From positions 10,853 to 74,852 of the forward strand of contig DATNJF010000404.1 of the NCBI GenBank assembly GCA_035604035.1: 64,000 bases of DNA, in the 5' to 3' direction. The stretch is from Stellaceae bacterium. GTDB lineage: Bacteria > Pseudomonadota > Alphaproteobacteria > ATCC43930 > CGMCC-115725. Within the stretch, counting starts at the first letter, position 1, and each line of letters opens with the position of its first letter. This document shows positions 4,848 to 36,829 of this stretch, in pieces. The notes beneath the pieces were generated by a model. It did no database searches and was not told the origin of the DNA. It saw nothing but the letters and a program-made list of their open reading frames with translations. The position numbers and the translations under genes were made by a program.

Positions 4848-5978
4848 ATGACCGTCGCCGACAACATCCTCGTCTACCGCGACCGCATCGTGCCGCGCTC
4901 GGAGGTGCATTTCCTGCGGCGGCTTTACCTGGCGTTCGACCGGCTGCGGCCGGTGTGGATCGGTCGGCATAAAGGCGACGGGCTGGCCGAGTTGGGCTAC
5001 GAGCCGCTATTTCTCGGCCGCGGCGGCCCGCTCGGCGCGGTCGACCGCGCCTTGTTCAAGCATTTCGGCACGCTGCCACCGGTGCCGGATTTGCGCGCGC
5101 TGAAGCCGCGCCTCGTGCACGCGCATTTCGGCCGCGGCGGGGCGCTGGCCCTGCCGATCGCGCGGGCGCTGAAATTGCCGCTGGTCGTACACTTTCACGG
5201 CGGCGACGCCACCAAGGAAAAGCACTACCGCAAACGGCTGCTGCCGACGATCTACCAGCAGCGCCTCAAGGCGCTCAAGGATGAGGCGGCGCTCTTCATC
5301 TGCGTCTCCGACTTCATCCGCCAGCAGCTGCTCGCGCGCGGTTTCCCGCCCGAAAAGCTCGTCGTCCACCGCTATGGGGTCGAGATCGACACGAGCCTGC
5401 CGGCCGATCCGCCCGAGCCGAGCGGCGAGGTGCTGTTCGCCGGACGTTTTGTCGAGAAGAAAGGGATCGGCTACCTACTCGAGGCGATGCGCCGGCTCGA
5501 GGACGAGCCGGGCGAATTGGAGCTGGTGCTGGTCGGCGACGGGCCGATTGCCGACGAGCTAAAGCGCCAGGCGGCGCCCTTGAAACGGGTATCGTTCGCC
5601 GGCTGGCTGCCGAATGCCGAGCTGCGCCGCCGGATGCACGGCGCTCTCGCGGTCTGCGTGCCCAGCGTTCACGCCGAGGACGGCGACGCCGAGGGTCTCC
5701 CCAATGTCGTGATCGAGGCGATGGCGGCCGGTGCGCCGGTGATCGGATCGCGTCATGCCGGCATCGGCGAGGCGGTGGCGCACGAGCGGACCGGGCTCCT
5801 CGTGCCGCCGGGCGACGCGGAAGCGCTCGCCGCGGCGCTGCGCCGGTTGCGCGACGAGCCCAAGTTGCGCGGCTCGCTCGGCGCCGGCGCACGCCAGGTC
5901 GCAATCGCCGAGTTTGACGCGCGCGTGCAATCGCAGCGGCTCCAGCAAAAATTGCTGGAGATCATCGAAAAAACCTAG
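4848..5978 (+). CDS. glycosyltransferase family 4 (GT-B, group 1)
   Basis: C-terminal EGLPNVVIEAMAAGAPVIGSRHAGIGEAV...TGLLVPPGD, the E-x7-E GT4 signature. Start chosen at MTVADNILVY. Confidence 0.8.
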   Translation: MTVADNILVYRDRIVPRSEVHFLRRLYLAFDRLRPVWIGRHKGDGLAELGYEPLFLGRGGPLGAVDRALFKHFGTLPPVPDLRALKPRLVHAHFGRGGALALPIARALKLPLVVHFHGGDATKEKHYRKRLLPTIYQQRLKALKDEAALFICVSDFIRQQLLARGFPPEKLVVHRYGVEIDTSLPADPPEPSGEVLFAGRFVEKKGIGYLLEAMRRLEDEPGELELVLVGDGPIADELKRQAAPLKRVSFAGWLPNAELRRRMHGALAVCVPSVHAEDGDAEGLPNVVIEAMAAGAPVIGSRHAGIGEAVAHERTGLLVPPGDAEALAAALRRLRDEPKLRGSLGAGARQVAIAEFDARVQSQRLQQKLLEIIEKT

Positions 5979-7214
5979 GTGTCCACCCCTCCGCTAGCCA
6001 TCGAGCAAGCGCCGGCGCGCTGGCCGGAATACGGCCTCGACGCCTGTGTCTTTTTGCTGTTGCCGGTGCTGGTGCTGACGCCGCGTGGAGCGGCGCCGCT
6101 GGCGGCGATCGCTGGCTTGCTTGGCTTGGCCCTGGCGCTGCCCGCCGGGCTCACGATCTGGCGCAAGCTGGTGGTGCCGGCGGTGCTGCTGGGCGCGCTG
6201 ATCGCCTGGGGACTGGTCTCCAGCCTGTGGGCGGTCGACCCGGAGCGCACTCTCGAGATGGCGGTGCGGCTTGCCGCGCTGTTCGCCGCGGCGCTGGGAT
6301 TGGCTGCCGCGGCCGAAGCGCTCGCCGCTCCGCGGCGCTTGCTCTGCTGGCTCGCCGCCGGGCTAGCGGTAGCCATCGTGCTCGCCGCCGTGCAGTTCTT
6401 CACCCAGGGCTGGCTGACCAACGGCTTCAGCAAACGGGTCTTCATCGCGCCGGCGCTGAACCAGGTCGAGAATGCGCTCGCTCTGTTGCTGCTGCCGCTG
6501 ACCGCGCTGCTGATCGAGCGGCGGCGGCCCTGGCTGGCCGCGCTTGTCGCCGTGGCGATGGCGCTGACGCTGTTCGATCTCGTCGGCACATCCGCCAAGG
6601 CCGGCATCGCGGCGGGAGTCGCGGTGGCGGCGCTGCTCTATCTCGCGCGCCGGCTGATCGCCCGCTTGGCGGCGATCGTCTCGGTTGTCGCGATCCTCAC
6701 CGCGCCGCTGACCTTCCCGGCGCTGACCGAGGTGCCCGCGGTCCACGATTGGGCCGCGGGCTATTGGAAATTCTCCGCGCGGCACCGGCTGGAGATCTGG
6801 TGGTTCACCGGCAACCGTATCGCTGAGCGGCCGATGCTCGGCTGGGGCCTCGACTCCTCGCGCGCGATCCCGGGCGGCAGCGACCCGACCCCAGAAGGTC
6901 CGCCCTGGCTGCCGCTCCACCCGCATAACGGCGCGCTGCAAATCTGGCTCGAGCTCGGGCTGCCTGGTGCGCTGTTGTTCGCGGGATTTATCGCCCGGCT
7001 GTGGTTGAGCTTGGCGAGAGCGCCGTGGCCCCGTCTCTTTGCCGCCGCCGCCGGCGGCAGCCTCTGCGCGTCGCAGACGATCGGGCTCGCCGCCTACGGC
7101 CTATGGGAGGAATGGTGGATCGGGACGCAGTTTCTGATGCTGTTCCTGATCCTCGTCATGGGTCGCCTGGTGACTCAGCCCATTCCCGAGACGCCGCGCG
7201 GCTCGATCTCGTAG
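5979..7214 (+). CDS. O-antigen ligase/polymerase (Wzy_C) family membrane protein
   Basis: 411 aa polytopic membrane protein with the motif PHNGALQIWLELGLPGALLF. GTG start directly after the GT4 stop. Confidence 0.75.
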   Translation: MSTPPLAIEQAPARWPEYGLDACVFLLLPVLVLTPRGAAPLAAIAGLLGLALALPAGLTIWRKLVVPAVLLGALIAWGLVSSLWAVDPERTLEMAVRLAALFAAALGLAAAAEALAAPRRLLCWLAAGLAVAIVLAAVQFFTQGWLTNGFSKRVFIAPALNQVENALALLLLPLTALLIERRRPWLAALVAVAMALTLFDLVGTSAKAGIAAGVAVAALLYLARRLIARLAAIVSVVAILTAPLTFPALTEVPAVHDWAAGYWKFSARHRLEIWWFTGNRIAERPMLGWGLDSSRAIPGGSDPTPEGPPWLPLHPHNGALQIWLELGLPGALLFAGFIARLWLSLARAPWPRLFAAAAGGSLCASQTIGLAAYGLWEEWWIGTQFLMLFLILVMGRLVTQPIPETPRGSIS

Positions 7215-33900: not shown

Positions 33901-34485
33901 GCCTCCTACGGCTATTGGCCGTGCGCCGCTCAGGGCAACGCGGTGGTGCTGTTCGATCCCGACGGCGGCCCGGGTGGAAAAGAACGCGAGGTCGCGCGCT
34001 TCGACTTCCCGCGCCAGAACAAGCGGGACGGGCTCTGCATCGCCGATTTCTTCCGCGACATCGAAAGCCCCGAGCGCGACGTCATCGGGCTGCAGGTCGT
34101 GACCATGGGCCGCCGCGCCTCGGAGGCGGCGCGCGAGTGGTTCGCCGCCGACCGCTACCAGGATTATCTCTATCTGCACGGGCTCTCGGTCGAGATGGCC
34201 GAGGCCTTCGCCGAATATGTCCACAAGCGCATCCGCGGCGAACTCGGCTTCGCCGCCGAGGAGGCGCGCGACCACGACGAGATGCTGGCGCAAGGCTATC
34301 GCGGCAGCCGCTATTCGTTCGGCTACCCGGCTTGCCCCAACCTCGCCGACCAGGCCCAGCTGCTGGCGCTGCTCAACGCCGACGCGATCGGCCTCGCCCT
34401 CACCGACGAAGACCAGCTCGACCCCGAGCAATCGACCTCGGCGATCGTCGTCCACCACCCGCAAGCCAAGTACTTTTCGGTGTGA
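30964..34485 (+). CDS. metH: cobalamin-dependent methionine synthase
   Basis: 1173 aa. Hcy-binding domain (LLCDGAMGT), pterin-binding domain, B12-binding motif GDVHDIGKNLV, and the AdoMet activation domain (RYSFGYPACP). Confidence 0.95.
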   Translation: MAHLLDYLADCVLLCDGAMGTETQARNLDIVRDFHDHENCTEILTESRPDLVREIHRGYLAAGSDAIQTNSFGGSPITLNEFGIADKAFALNKLSAELARETIAEFAHDGRTRFVFGSLGPGTRLPSLGHVAYQPLEDALTVQCDGLVAGGVDAILIETCQDPLQIKAAVNGAKRARATAGKDTPIFVQVTVETTGTLLVGADIAAAATIIDALDVNGLGLNCATGPREMAEHVKFLGDNWPRLISVQPNAGLPELVSGRTQYPLSPEELSQWLERFVLEDGANIIGGCCGTEPRHIAALDAMLRRIGRDRPRPVPKRRQPAWTPSVASLYSQVSLRQENAYLSIGERCNANGSRAFRRLQEQHDWDGCVEMGREQVKEGSHTLDLCTAFVGRDEIADMTEMVTRMRGSVNAPLVVDSTEYPVLEAAMALYGGKPIINSINFEDGEDAAEKRVKLARRFGAAVIALTIDETGMAKEVDHKLALAQRLYDFACVKHGLPPSDLLFDPLTFTICTGNADDRRLGLNTLDAIERIAKALPECQIILGLSNISFGLNPPARQVLNSVFLDHALKRGMTGAIVHFSRILPQHRIPEAEWQVAEDLIFDRRRDGPGDQYDPLQAFMALFEDRTIEKEEKQGRPENLEERLAYRIVEGDRLDLEADLDLAMQAHSPLDIINEHLLGGMKTVGDLFGAGKMQLPFVLQSAETMKTAVKYLEPHMERVEGQEKGTIVLATVRGDVHDIGKNLVDIILTNNGYRVVNLGIKQPIGAILDAAKEHRAHAIGMSGLLVKSTVVMRENLEEMSRMGLDVPVMLGGAALTRRYVEEDCVKAYEAGRVAYARDAFDGLALMDRIVGNDFDGYLAEVQEKSAGRPKNPSRKLGRAADARVLRPIDFEEIRLRRAELTSGVAVPNPPFWGARVLERVPVKTVASYLNERMLYQFQWGFRKEGRSLAEYKKWARGELRPLLSRIMDIAIRENILQPQASYGYWPCAAQGNAVVLFDPDGGPGGKEREVARFDFPRQNKRDGLCIADFFRDIESPERDVIGLQVVTMGRRASEAAREWFAADRYQDYLYLHGLSVEMAEAFAEYVHKRIRGELGFAAEEARDHDEMLAQGYRGSRYSFGYPACPNLADQAQLLALLNADAIGLALTDEDQLDPEQSTSAIVVHHPQAKYFSV
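34449..34485 (+). repeat. direct repeat copy 1: the functional 3' terminus of metH (candidate attL-like junction)
   Basis: cgtccaccacccgcaagccaagtacttttcggtgtga encodes VHHPQAKYFSV*. It is repeated at 36317-36353. Confidence 0.85.
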
Positions 34486-34517
34486 TCGCGACACGCCGCC
34501 ATGGGAACGGAGCGGAA

Positions 34518-35657
34518 ATGCGCGTCGAGATAAACCCGAGATTGCTGCGCTGGGCGCGGGAACGCTCAGGATACGATCCCGACGCCCTCGCTCATCGATT
34601 TCCGAGACTTGATGAGTGGGAACGCGGCGACGCACAGCCGACGCTCAAGCAGCTTGAGCAGTTCGCCAGTGCGGTCCACGCGCCGATCGGCTACCTGTTT
34701 CTGCCCGAGCCGCCTGTCGAGCGCGTGCCGATTCCGGATTTCCGGACGGTCGGAAATGCGCATATCGAGCGACCGTCGCCTGACCTGCTAGAAACGATCT
34801 ACATCTGCCAGCAGCGCCAAGAATGGTACCGCGACTTCCTTCGCTCGACGGCTGCTGACCCGCTTCCATTCGTCGGTTCGACGACCGTGAATACGGCAAT
34901 AGAGACGGCGGCGGGCGCTATTCGCGGGGCGCTTCACTTCGACCTCGCAGAGCGGGCACGGATGCCGACATGGACGGAGGCGCTGCGGCGGTTCATTGAA
35001 CAGGCAGACGCGATCGGCGTCCTGGTCATGGTCAGCGGGGTGGTCGGTAGCAACAACCGGAGAAAACTCGATGCGGACGAGTTTCGCGGCTTTGCCCTTT
35101 GCGATGACCGGGCTCCACTGGTCTTCATCAACGGGTCCGACACCAAGTCTGCGCAGATGTTCACACTGGCCCACGAGTTGGCGCACATCTGGCTCGGCCA
35201 GTCCGCGCTCTCCGACATGGAACCGGTGTCCACGCCGGCCCACGCTGTCGAGCAGTGGTGCAACCTTGTCGCGGCCGAACTACTTGTTCCGCTCGCGGCG
35301 GTACGCGCCGAATATCGGCGGGACGCAGGTCTGCGCGCCGAGGTGGATCGGCTGGCAAGGCGGTTCAAGGTAAGCACGCTCGTCGTTTTGCGTCGCATCC
35401 ATGACGCGGGCGGTCTAACGCGAGACCAACTTTGGGCGGCATACCGAGCCGAAGTCGAACGCCTCCTGGCGATCCCTCGGGGAAGCGGCGGAGATTTCTA
35501 CCTGACCCAGGCTGCACGCGTCGGGAAGCGGTTCGCCCGTGCCCTCGTGGCGAACACGCTGGAGGGACAGACCCTCCATCGTGACGCTTTCCACCTGCTC
35601 GGATTTTCGAAGCTTGCAACATTCCGCGAACTTGGCCGCAGTCTGGGTGTCGAGTGA
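34518..35657 (+). CDS. XRE-like HTH plus ImmA/IrrE-family (COG2856, M78) zinc metallopeptidase
   Basis: 379 aa. The N-terminal helix-turn-helix-like segment RLLRWARERSGYDPDALAHRF...PTLKQLEQFASAVHAPIGYLF, and HELAHIWLG (HExxH, aa 219-223, nt 35172-35186). Confidence 0.8.
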   Translation: MRVEINPRLLRWARERSGYDPDALAHRFPRLDEWERGDAQPTLKQLEQFASAVHAPIGYLFLPEPPVERVPIPDFRTVGNAHIERPSPDLLETIYICQQRQEWYRDFLRSTAADPLPFVGSTTVNTAIETAAGAIRGALHFDLAERARMPTWTEALRRFIEQADAIGVLVMVSGVVGSNNRRKLDADEFRGFALCDDRAPLVFINGSDTKSAQMFTLAHELAHIWLGQSALSDMEPVSTPAHAVEQWCNLVAAELLVPLAAVRAEYRRDAGLRAEVDRLARRFKVSTLVVLRRIHDAGGLTRDQLWAAYRAEVERLLAIPRGSGGDFYLTQAARVGKRFARALVANTLEGQTLHRDAFHLLGFSKLATFRELGRSLGVE

Positions 35658-36145
35658 TGGCGTACCTGCTGGACGCCAATGTGTTCATGCAGGCGAAGAA
35701 TCTCCATTACGGCCTCGATTTCTGTCCGGCGTTCTGGGATTGGCTGATCGAGGCCAACGCGGCCGGCCGGGTTTTCAGCATCGAGAAGGTCGGCGATGAA
35801 ATCGACGCCGGTGCAGACGAGCTTTCGACCTGGGCGGTGGCGCAGGGAGAAGGGTTCTTCCTGAGGCCCGACGCCGCCATTCTTCCGGCTCTCGGCGCGG
35901 TCAGTGCGTGGGCTACGGGTCAGGCGTATGAGCCTGCTGCCGTGAACACGTTCTTGCAGGTCGCCGACTATTACCTAGTCGCCCATGCCCTGGCGCATCG
36001 TCACACCGTCGTGACCCACGAGATCGCATCGCCGTCGACCAAAAAGATTAAGATTCCCAACGCTTGCATCGGCGTTTCCGTAAAATGCATGACGCCGTTC
36101 GAGATGCTTCGACATGAAAGAGTGCGCTTCGTGCTTGGCCATTAA
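35657..36145 (+). CDS. DUF4411-family (PIN-like nuclease fold) protein
   Basis: MAYLLDANVFMQAKNLHYGLDFCPAFWDWLIEA...VFSIEKVGDEI is typical of the DUF4411 N-terminus. Its ATG overlaps the peptidase TGA by 1 nt (GTGATG). Confidence 0.75.
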   Translation: MAYLLDANVFMQAKNLHYGLDFCPAFWDWLIEANAAGRVFSIEKVGDEIDAGADELSTWAVAQGEGFFLRPDAAILPALGAVSAWATGQAYEPAAVNTFLQVADYYLVAHALAHRHTVVTHEIASPSTKKIKIPNACIGVSVKCMTPFEMLRHERVRFVLGH

Positions 36146-36316
36146 GAGATGAGCGAAAACGGGTCGTGCTGGGCTATCCCGCCCGCATCCTGCCGAAGGA
36201 CGTGGCGGCCGAGAAAATCCTCGGGGCGCGCACGCTGACCAATCTCGACAGTGAGCGGCCGACCCGGCTCGCCAATGCGCACCGCGATCTCGACGAGAGC
36301 CACTGACCTGATCGGG

Positions 36317-36353
36317 CGTCCACCACCCGCAGGCAAAATACTTTTCGGTGTAG
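36317..36353 (+). repeat. direct repeat copy 2: orphan copy of the metH 3' terminus (candidate attR-like junction)
   Basis: cgtccaccacccgcaggcaaaatacttttcggtgtag also translates to VHHPQAKYFSV*. It differs from copy 1 at 3 synonymous positions and in the stop codon. Confidence 0.85.
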
Positions 36354-36562
36354 TTCTGGCTTCCGCACGCCAAGGCGCATACCACCGTGTACTCTTTTTG
36401 TTCTTAACAAGACAGTAATTGCGTTTATATAGTGTCGCCATCGGGTCCGCGATATGCGGACAGCGTGAACGCGGGCGCCTGTTAATTTCCAGCAGATACA
36501 GGCGGAACGAAACGGGGTCGGATATTTTTGCGAGAAAACACCGATTTCAGCTGCGCCGGTTG

Positions 36563-36635
36563 CTGTTATCTCGCTGTTTTCGCTGCTGTTCCGCCACTGT
36601 TATCCCGCTGTTTTCACCGCAGTTATTTCGCTGTT
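36563..36635. repeat. array of seven C(T/A)GTT(A/T)T cores spaced 11-12 bp apart (helically phased, iteron-like)
   Basis: Cores start at 36563, 36574, 36586, 36597, 36608, 36620 and 36631, within ...tgctgttatctcgctgttttcgctgctgttccgccactgttatcccgctgttttcaccgcagttatttcgctgttttg... Confidence 0.7.
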
Positions 36636-36829
36636 TTGAACAAGAAATATGAATAGATCCAAGGCGTTGGCTTTTTAGCGCGGAGTATCAGGAGTATCAG
36701 CGGGGCGTTTCTTCGTTACTCGAACGCACTGCGGCGGGTCGATGAGACAGTCGCCCAAGGGCACCGGCCTGCGCCGGCATGGGTGAGGGCTGTTGCTCAA
36801 CCTCACCCAGTTTGCTAAGCCGCGCGGTG

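Follow-up and report, generated by a model that had tools for sequence, protein, structure and literature searches.

A DUF4411 PIN gene and its XRE–M78 peptidase partner beside metH in a Stellaceae bacterium: a probable toxin–antitoxin module of the VapBC52 type

A stretch of 64,000 nucleotides (nt) from a Stellaceae bacterium (assembly GCA_035604035.1, contig DATNJF010000404.1, positions 10,853–74,852 of the forward strand), hereafter the window, carries two overlapping genes just downstream of metH, the methionine synthase gene. The first encodes an XRE-like helix-turn-helix (HTH) domain fused to an M78/IrrE peptidase, and the second a DUF4411 protein of PIN type. The pair is a distant relative of Mycobacterium tuberculosis VapBC52, and so belongs to a kind of system already characterised rather than to a new one. 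It probably forms a protease-gated PIN nuclease toxin–antitoxin (TA) module of the VapBC52 type, a reading which is given a probability of about 0.7. This reading draws on the structure of the two genes, their homology, the conservation of their catalytic and cleavage-site residues, their obligate pairing, and their association with restriction-modification (R-M) and other defence genes. The original prediction for this DNA had proposed a peptidase-controlled PIN toxin within a COG2856-linked TA system, probably with a defensive role, and this core of it is supported by both the homology to VapBC52 and the genomic context.

Homology of the gene pair to VapBC52

Both genes lie on the + strand. 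The VapB52-like antitoxin gene (34518–35657), recognised from matches in Pfam, PADLOC and entry 9vzy_A of the Protein Data Bank (PDB), from AlphaFold2 and Foldseek, and from invariant alignment columns, runs from an ATG at 34518 to a TGA at 35655–35657 and encodes 379 amino acids (aa). The VapC52-like DUF4411 PIN toxin gene (35657–36145), recognised from Pfam family PF14367, PDB matches and an invariant catalytic tetrad, runs from an ATG at 35657 to a TAA at 36143–36145 and encodes 162 aa. One base is common to the stop codon of the first gene and the start codon of the second, within GTGATG at 35654–35659; this 1-nt overlap bears out the translational coupling that had been predicted there.

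The antitoxin aligns over residues 6–345 with residues 2–356 of 9vzy_A, an ‘HTH cro/C1-type domain-containing protein’, at 31% identity over 330 aa (E 8.6e-23 with the single sequence, 1.4e-26 with a profile). The PIN protein matches 9vzy_D and 9vzz_A, both named ‘DUF4411 family protein’, at E ~1e-6 (8.8e-7 for 9vzy_D), with residues 23–146 aligned to VapC52 at 28% identity over 119 aa. Entries 9VZY and 9VZZ represent M. tuberculosis VapB52:VapC52, that is Rv2515c/Rv2514c (Singh et al., NAR, June 2026, PMC13273310). VapC52 is a PIN tRNase which cleaves anticodon or variable loops, and in which D6, E48, D99 and E117 are each essential to the cleavage of tRNA (PMC13273310). VapB52 is a 46-kDa protein of three domains: an XRE-like N-terminal domain which contacts the toxin; a middle M78/IrrE peptidase domain with the zinc ligands H216, H220 and E245, in which Cys229 caps the zinc; and a helical C-terminal domain which blocks the PIN active site, VapB52 and the VapC52 dimer being bound 1:2 (PMC13273310). 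Single-stranded DNA (ssDNA) turns on the VapB52 peptidase, whereupon its own N-terminal domain is cut near a conserved ‘FR’ motif, and this self-cleavage is proposed to free the toxin (PMC13273310). Overexpression of VapC52 shields M. smegmatis from phage D29 (PMC13273310).

In the window PIN protein, the DUF4411 family (PF14367) matches over the full length with an E value of 5.2e-54. The N-terminus, MAYLLDANVF, had been singled out as PIN-like from its LLDANVF motif, and it does hold D6 of the predicted catalytic tetrad, which consists of D6 (nt 35672–35674), E48 (35798–35800), D104 (35966–35968) and E122 (36020–36022). By alignment offset these correspond to D6, E48, D99 and E117 of VapC52, and all four are invariant in the subfamily (alignment A2). 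D6 lies outside the block aligned by HMMER and is paired with D6 of VapC52 by position and motif only.

In the antitoxin, Pfam places a Peptidase_M78 domain (PF06114) at residues 182–294 (E 5.8e-17) and matches no HTH at E<0.1. In an AlphaFold2 model built with database homologues (mean predicted local distance difference test score, pLDDT, 82; predicted template-modelling score, pTM, 0.76), an N-terminal XRE domain is joined by a disordered linker to an M78 core, which is followed by a helical C-terminus. The first 62 residues of the model form five helices (residues 7–61) which superpose on the XRE DNA-binding domains of ImmR and DdrO; together with weak profile matches to C.Csp231I and BswR, this fold upholds the XRE-like HTH of the original prediction despite the silence of Pfam. 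The structures found by Foldseek to be nearest to the M78 core are CapP, ssDNA-bound PprI, IrrE and PrpR. The PDB library used for this search runs to April 2026 and does not hold 9VZY, so that a structural match to VapB52 is not scorable with it; the neighbours named for the middle domain of VapB52 itself include CapP, IrrE and PrpR (PMC13273310).

The predicted zinc site consists of H219-E220-L-A-H223 (nt 35172–35186), which is the HELAH motif originally reported as intact, and of E245 (nt 35250–35252); H219, E220, H223 and E245 are invariant in three alignments. The predicted self-cleavage site, D74-F75-R76 (nt 34737–34745), stands within P-I-P-D-F-R, aligns with the DFR of VapB52 and falls in the low-confidence, presumably flexible linker of the AlphaFold2 model. 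Diverse members of the family all have D74 and R76, with F, L or M between the two. The C-terminus (aa 337–379) is predicted by AlphaFold2 to form three conserved helices, whose putative role is taken from VapB52 only.

The switch residue of VapB52, Cys229, aligns with S232 (nt 35211–35213) in the window antitoxin. Serine occupies the equivalent position in 32/32 sequences of alignment A1 and in at least 90% of the 36 sequences of A3, as well as in all nine of a set of diverse DUF4411-linked HTH–M78 peptidases (28–59% identical), which includes proteins from Arthrobacter, Gordonia, Enterobacter, Sinorhizobium, Pseudoalteromonas, Leptospira, Sphingomonas and Acetobacter plasmids. From these alignments Cys229 looks like a peculiarity of the mycobacterial protein, and the published cysteine switch may not generalise. 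A cysteine elsewhere, C248 in an E-x-x-C-N motif, is invariant in the nine diverse proteins.

An association of COG2856-Xre proteins with PIN domains, for which Rv2515c was cited, was predicted in 2009 (PMC2701414). DUF4411.1 was classed in 2017 as the toxin of three-component TA systems with HTH and DUF955 (PMC5499597), and in 2019 the TASmania study reported that Rv2514c is toxic and is rescued by Rv2515c (PMC6504116). With the structure, tRNase activity and phage phenotype of VapC52 added in 2026 (PMC13273310), the earlier view that the DUF4411 partner was experimentally uncharacterised is out of date.

Related loci, restriction-modification context and the islet at metH

A scan of one genome per species gave 80 loci with close relatives of the DUF4411 protein (72–86% identity), which span Acidobacteriota, Verrucomicrobiota, Chloroflexota, Actinomycetota, Planctomycetota, Desulfobacterota, Firmicutes, Omnitrophota and one Methanobacteriota bin. 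Of the 80, 78 have a full-length homologue of the antitoxin gene (60–77% identity) immediately before the DUF4411 gene. The two unpaired loci are L004, where a contig end cuts the homologue off, and L080, which has no peptidase gene. Stop and start codons overlap in nearly all of the 72 loci examined, either by 1 nt (TGATG or TAATG) or by 4 nt (ATGA). The pairing of the two genes is far beyond chance, and their co-occurrence in other genomes, on which the original prediction had been made to depend, is the rule.

Over 71 pairs the mean amino-acid identity is 0.74 for the PIN protein and 0.67 for the peptidase, while four-fold degenerate sites stand at 0.31–0.33 and are saturated. The GC content of the module follows that of its host, from 39 to 68%. 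Saturated four-fold sites and host-tracking GC together indicate an old divergence under strong purifying selection, and recent horizontal transfer is rejected on these grounds as the source of the high identity. At 50% identity the whole DUF4411 family falls into 3453 clusters (E<1e-3), and each window protein, used as query, returns at least 8000 clusters at 90% identity; among the best 120 of these at least 8000 matches, the PIN proteins are 80–96% and the peptidases 72–93% identical to those of the window. The genes are nearly absent from phage genomes, with 2 weak matches among 50,697 records.

In 25/80 loci the cassette is part of a type I R-M operon, with hsdS on one side and hsdR on the other; where the flanks reach at least 3 kb in both directions, the proportion is 16/41. 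The order of genes in the R-M loci is invariable, hsdM-hsdS-(x)-peptidase-PIN-(Abi)-hsdR, and the gap between hsdS and the cassette is often 6–16 nt. The PIN stop overlaps the hsdR start (ATGA, ~6492–6495) in R-M copies which include L008, L010, L019, L025 and others, so that toxin and restriction subunit are translationally coupled. On a plasmid of Acetobacter vaccinii, the Prokaryotic Genome Annotation Pipeline (PGAP) names the series as N-6 DNA methylase, S subunit, ImmA/IrrE, DUF4411, Abi and R subunit. Within R-M operons the PIN protein (76% identity) and the peptidase (68%) are more conserved than HsdR (63%) and HsdM (61%), and module identity correlates only weakly with that of HsdR and HsdM (r 0.35–0.5); this points to an independent cassette rather than to co-evolving partners.

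Other neighbours of the cassette include type IIG enzymes, HNH, AbiE/AbiEi, type III methyltransferases and candidate systems from PADLOC, and housekeeping genes are also frequent among them. On the conjugative plasmid pCADAB1 the pair stands in a row of TA modules in the maintenance region, and it is found on other plasmids too. Within the 64-kb window itself there is no hsdM, hsdS, hsdR or other defence gene.

In the window the two genes lie in an islet of 1.87 kb that adjoins the 3' end of metH, a 1222-aa open reading frame (ORF) on the + strand which ends at 34485. The islet lies between 35-nt direct repeats whose copies are 91% identical. Copy 1 (34449–34483, + strand) is the functional metH 3' terminus, encoding VHHPQAKYFSV with its stop codon at 34483–34485, and copy 2 (36317–36351, + strand) forms the right edge of the 1.87-kb insertion. 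Read with its stop codon (36318–36353), copy 2 encodes the same VHHPQAKYFSV and terminates, with only synonymous differences from copy 1, which identifies the downstream repeat as the former end of metH, now orphaned. Empty sites were located via homologues of the downstream NDUFA9-like epimerase gene. In relatives at ~89–90% nucleotide identity (L088/L089 and L090) metH is followed directly by this epimerase gene, so that their site is empty, and in L088 and L090 the metH terminus is single-copy. The original description of a tiny islet at a gene terminus is thus confirmed by the repeat brackets and by the empty site in relatives.

The start of the antitoxin gene is separated from the metH stop codon by a spacer of 32 nt (34486–34517, + strand) which contains a GGAG ribosome-binding site, and this spacer is conserved in the relative L081. 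A scan for promoters and terminators found no sigma-70-like promoter and no terminator between metH and the cassette, which makes read-through likely: the cassette is probably transcribed from metH, and seemingly has no promoter of its own in this genome. The GC content of the module, ~0.62–0.63, is slightly lower than that of its flanks, 0.66–0.69.

The ORFs of the islet are the two genes and a degenerate remnant of 47 codons (36163–36306, + strand), the C-terminal part of an MmeI-like class I S-adenosylmethionine (SAM)-dependent DNA methyltransferase; the islet contains no separate HTH gene and no regulated element. The remnant is 73% identical to the corresponding ORF in L081–L083, and the longer version in L081 (71 aa) has matches among plasmid genes annotated as DNA methyltransferase and type IIL MmeI. 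This suggests that an R-M gene was once the neighbour of the cassette, which stood beside it or at its end. The islet and the sequence next to it have no tRNA, integrase, transposase or Rfam family, and insertion as a classical integrative element or insertion sequence (IS) is for this reason not supported.

The gap between metH and the epimerase gene (window 34486–36810) is a variable hotspot in the lineage (L081, L088–L091). L081, whose peptidase is 93% identical to that of the window, has the insertion in common with the window and also a Rieske gene in the gap, and L091 carries at the same site a different island which holds an MmeI-like methyltransferase. The spacer that follows the orphaned metH end (36353–36810) is AT-richer (GC ~0.53–0.57) and has no Rfam matches; it contains a promoter-like site at 36404–36433 (TTAACA-18-TATAGT) and two adjoining 34-nt direct repeats, 36563–36596 and 36597–36630, which are 74% identical. 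L088 and L091 instead have in common, upstream of the epimerase gene, a conserved non-coding block of ~250 nt.

In many unrelated loci the cassette lies between imperfect direct repeats of 45–765 nt (77–95% identity). In L027, L036 and L053 the repeat consists of the 3' end of a Gfo/Idh/MocA oxidoreductase gene, present twice, and in these three loci and the window the flanking duplications amount to 35–205 nt of the 3' end of the host gene. In L016, L029, L058, L070, L073 and L078 the repeats are apparently non-coding and reach ~765 nt. No integrase was seen at repeat-flanked loci where checked, and the flanks of 72 loci have no conserved element ends, their similarity being confined to hsdS/hsdR coding sequence and lineage-specific synteny. 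Campbell-type recombination and homology-facilitated illegitimate recombination are possibilities for the route by which the repeat-flanked insertions arose.

Proposed mechanism and rival explanations

In the proposed mechanism two genes would supply three functions. The toxin and the large antitoxin would be made together by way of translational coupling, and the antitoxin would probably hold a PIN dimer in a 1:2 complex, with its XRE-like domain clasping the dimer from outside and the helices of its C-terminus covering the active site. A signal would then activate the antitoxin's own M78/IrrE zinc peptidase, which would sever its own N-terminal domain at the D-F-R linker. The complex would disassemble, and the freed nuclease would degrade tRNAs and halt translation, with growth arrest or abortive infection as the outcome. 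The DUF4411 protein is envisaged as a Mg2+/Mn2+-dependent PIN endoribonuclease, most likely a tRNase which cuts anticodon or variable loops, and the odds that its substrates are indeed tRNAs are put at about even. The trigger would be ssDNA, as in VapBC52, arising from phage replication or DNA damage; this step is held more tentatively, because the switch cysteine is missing. Toxicity, stoichiometry, the ssDNA trigger, the tRNA targets and the phage phenotype are all carried over from VapBC52 by analogy. As to the natural role, phage defence on the one hand and addiction or stress response on the other are finely balanced.

Several observations weigh against this mechanism. Identity to the sole characterised member is ~30%, and residues 1–22 of the PIN protein are unaligned to VapC52 by sequence. 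AlphaFold2 gave no usable fold for the PIN protein with 26 close homologues (pLDDT 45). PADLOC 2.0 has no model for DUF4411, and the window protein matches none of the models that it does contain (E<0.1). The C-terminal domain of the antitoxin (345–379) is not alignable to that of VapB52 and is shorter, at ~35–43 residues versus 59. Serine stands at 232 in place of Cys229, and since it does so in all nine diverse peptidases as well, the activation switch, and perhaps the trigger, may differ from those of VapBC52. At L080 (6001–6495) a solo DUF4411 gene has no peptidase gene upstream, and at L012 and L022 (near 4855–6000) the peptidase gene is interrupted and the PIN gene intact; if these are not assembly errors, the PIN protein is not always lethal alone. 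Finally, the phage protection reported for VapC52 came with the toxin alone and was lost when VapB52 was co-expressed (PMC13273310), so that a native role in defence is unproven even for VapBC52.

Some of the same facts can be read as those of a purely selfish addiction module, which would stabilise only itself and its host DNA (plasmids, islands and R-M operons) by post-segregational killing, would play no part in phage defence, and in which the peptidase would merely tune the turnover of the antitoxin. The place of the pair among other TA pairs in the maintenance region of pCADAB1, its presence on other plasmids, the many housekeeping genes among its chromosomal neighbours and the weakness of the VapBC52 phage data all fit such a module, as does the solitary position of the window copy next to metH, the 64 kb having no other defence gene. 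This reading is nevertheless unlikely: siting in type I R-M operons is frequent and stereotyped, other loci adjoin further defence genes, and simple addiction would hardly call for a peptidase that is conserved and apparently regulated and whose self-cleavage motif is invariant. Strong purifying selection across phyla likewise suggests a benefit to the host. If those R-M operons are instead taken as the natural setting, the cassette would act as a second line of the PrrC kind, monitoring the restriction complex or its DNA products and firing a tRNase when restriction is overwhelmed or inhibited, and the window copy would be a stray whose partner system is gone. The recurrent gene order in 25/80 loci (16/41 of those with full flanks), the overlap of the PIN stop with the hsdR start, the apparent lack of an own promoter in R-M settings (gaps of 6–16 nt) and the methyltransferase remnant in the islet are consistent with this idea, and restriction yields ssDNA and DNA fragments, the class of trigger to which CapP, PprI and VapB52 respond. 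Set against it are the 55/80 loci without a type I R-M system nearby, the absence of such a system from the window, and the greater conservation of the module than of HsdR and HsdM, with a weak correlation, which suggests an independent cassette; a physical interaction with the R-M complex is hypothetical. The idea is accordingly rated as improbable, slightly below addiction.

Least probable of all is a switch of the ImmR/ImmA or DdrO/IrrE kind, in which the HTH–peptidase would be mainly a DNA-binding repressor-protease in charge of a regulon or a mobile element, and the DUF4411 protein an accessory nuclease rather than a toxin. The folds do lie in that direction: CapP, PprI/IrrE and PrpR are the nearest structures to the M78 core, and the N-terminal domain is most like the DNA-binding domains of ImmR and DdrO. 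Yet the islet has neither a separate repressor gene nor mobile-element genes, no promoter or operator region is available for regulation, the XRE-like domain of VapB52 binds the toxin, and the homologous PIN protein is toxic and is neutralised by its partner. The protease-gated TA module is preferred. A more elaborate proposal can be built on that module, namely a promoter-less plug-in cassette which parasitises or serves highly expressed operons, mainly those of type I R-M, where it is coupled in translation to hsdR and acts as a restriction-linked backup tRNase, which is gated by an invariant serine, and which spreads without an integrase while duplicating the 3' ends of its targets, metH in the window being one. 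It is speculative and improbable; if true, its serine gating implies an activation chemistry or a trigger other than the cysteine switch.

Taken by itself, the copy in the window is no more than an ordinary accessory islet. DUF4411 genes paired with a gene annotated as ‘ImmA/IrrE family metallo-endopeptidase’ or ‘XRE family regulator’ can now be named as VapBC52-type TA or defence modules, and the family in question is very large and without a model in PADLOC 2.0. The cysteine switch of VapBC52 is replaced by serine in nearly every other member examined, while every member examined keeps the D-[FLM]-R site and the zinc ligands; in this subfamily about one third of the loci form part of a type I R-M operon. 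The survey in this way refines the generality of the M. tuberculosis model and suggests better experimental models than a slow-growing pathogen. For specialists, the leads are the family-wide serine, the stereotyped insertion into type I R-M operons and the recurrence of duplication-flanked insertions.

Comparison with known systems

RosmerTA (RmrT/RmrA; Millman et al. 2022) resembles the window pair in that an HTH–M78 antitoxin stands beside a toxin. The best PADLOC match of the antitoxin is to RmrA (PDLC03949, E 1.7e-17) over residues 185–302 only, capP is also matched, and one RmrA model covers residues 8–304 at E 1.4e-7; the RmrA matches are thus mainly to the peptidase core, and their scores are modest. 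The DUF4411 protein matches no RmrT model, and membership of RosmerTA is rejected since no RmrT-like toxin lies beside the antitoxin gene. What is left of the resemblance to RosmerTA originally noted is an architectural analogy. To our knowledge the mechanism of RosmerTA has not been established.

CapH/CapP, ImmR/ImmA and DdrO/IrrE (PprI) share the M78/IrrE peptidase fold with the window antitoxin. Binding of ssDNA is a property of CapP and PprI, and upon DNA damage or phage infection the proteases of these systems cleave an XRE-type domain. In CapH/CapP, ImmR/ImmA and DdrO/IrrE that domain belongs to a repressor encoded separately and the outcome is a change in transcription, whereas in the window antitoxin the XRE domain is fused to the protease and would be cut in cis, with release of a nuclease as the output.

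PrrC, encoded in the EcoprrI type Ic R-M operon, is a tRNA-directed nuclease placed between R-M genes, and in this it is like about one third of the related loci and unlike the window. Its fold (ABC-ATPase/HEPN-like) is unrelated to that of DUF4411, and it is masked by the R-M complex rather than by a dedicated protease-antitoxin.

Canonical VapBC modules are like the window pair in their PIN toxin, their upstream antitoxin gene and their translational coupling. The canonical PIN toxin cleaves tRNA or rRNA. Canonical VapB is a DNA-binding protein of 8–13 kDa, of the ribbon-helix-helix (RHH), AbrB or PhD type, and is removed by host Lon or Clp, in contrast to the window antitoxin, a 42-kDa enzyme of 379 aa which would remove itself.

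VapBC52 is the closest of the known systems in its organisation. It has the same gene order and overlap as the window pair; its toxin, too, is a DUF4411 PIN protein, in which the four catalytic residues agree with those of the window; and its antitoxin has, in the same order, an XRE-like domain, a D-F-R linker, an M78 domain with HExxH+E and a helical C-terminus, the last being a prediction in the window antitoxin. The window pair differs from it in having Ser232 for Cys229 and a shorter C-terminal domain. The subfamily to which the window pair belongs is further set apart from VapBC52 by its exceptional conservation across phyla and by being often built into type I R-M operons, and the window copy by its integrase-less islet at the end of metH.

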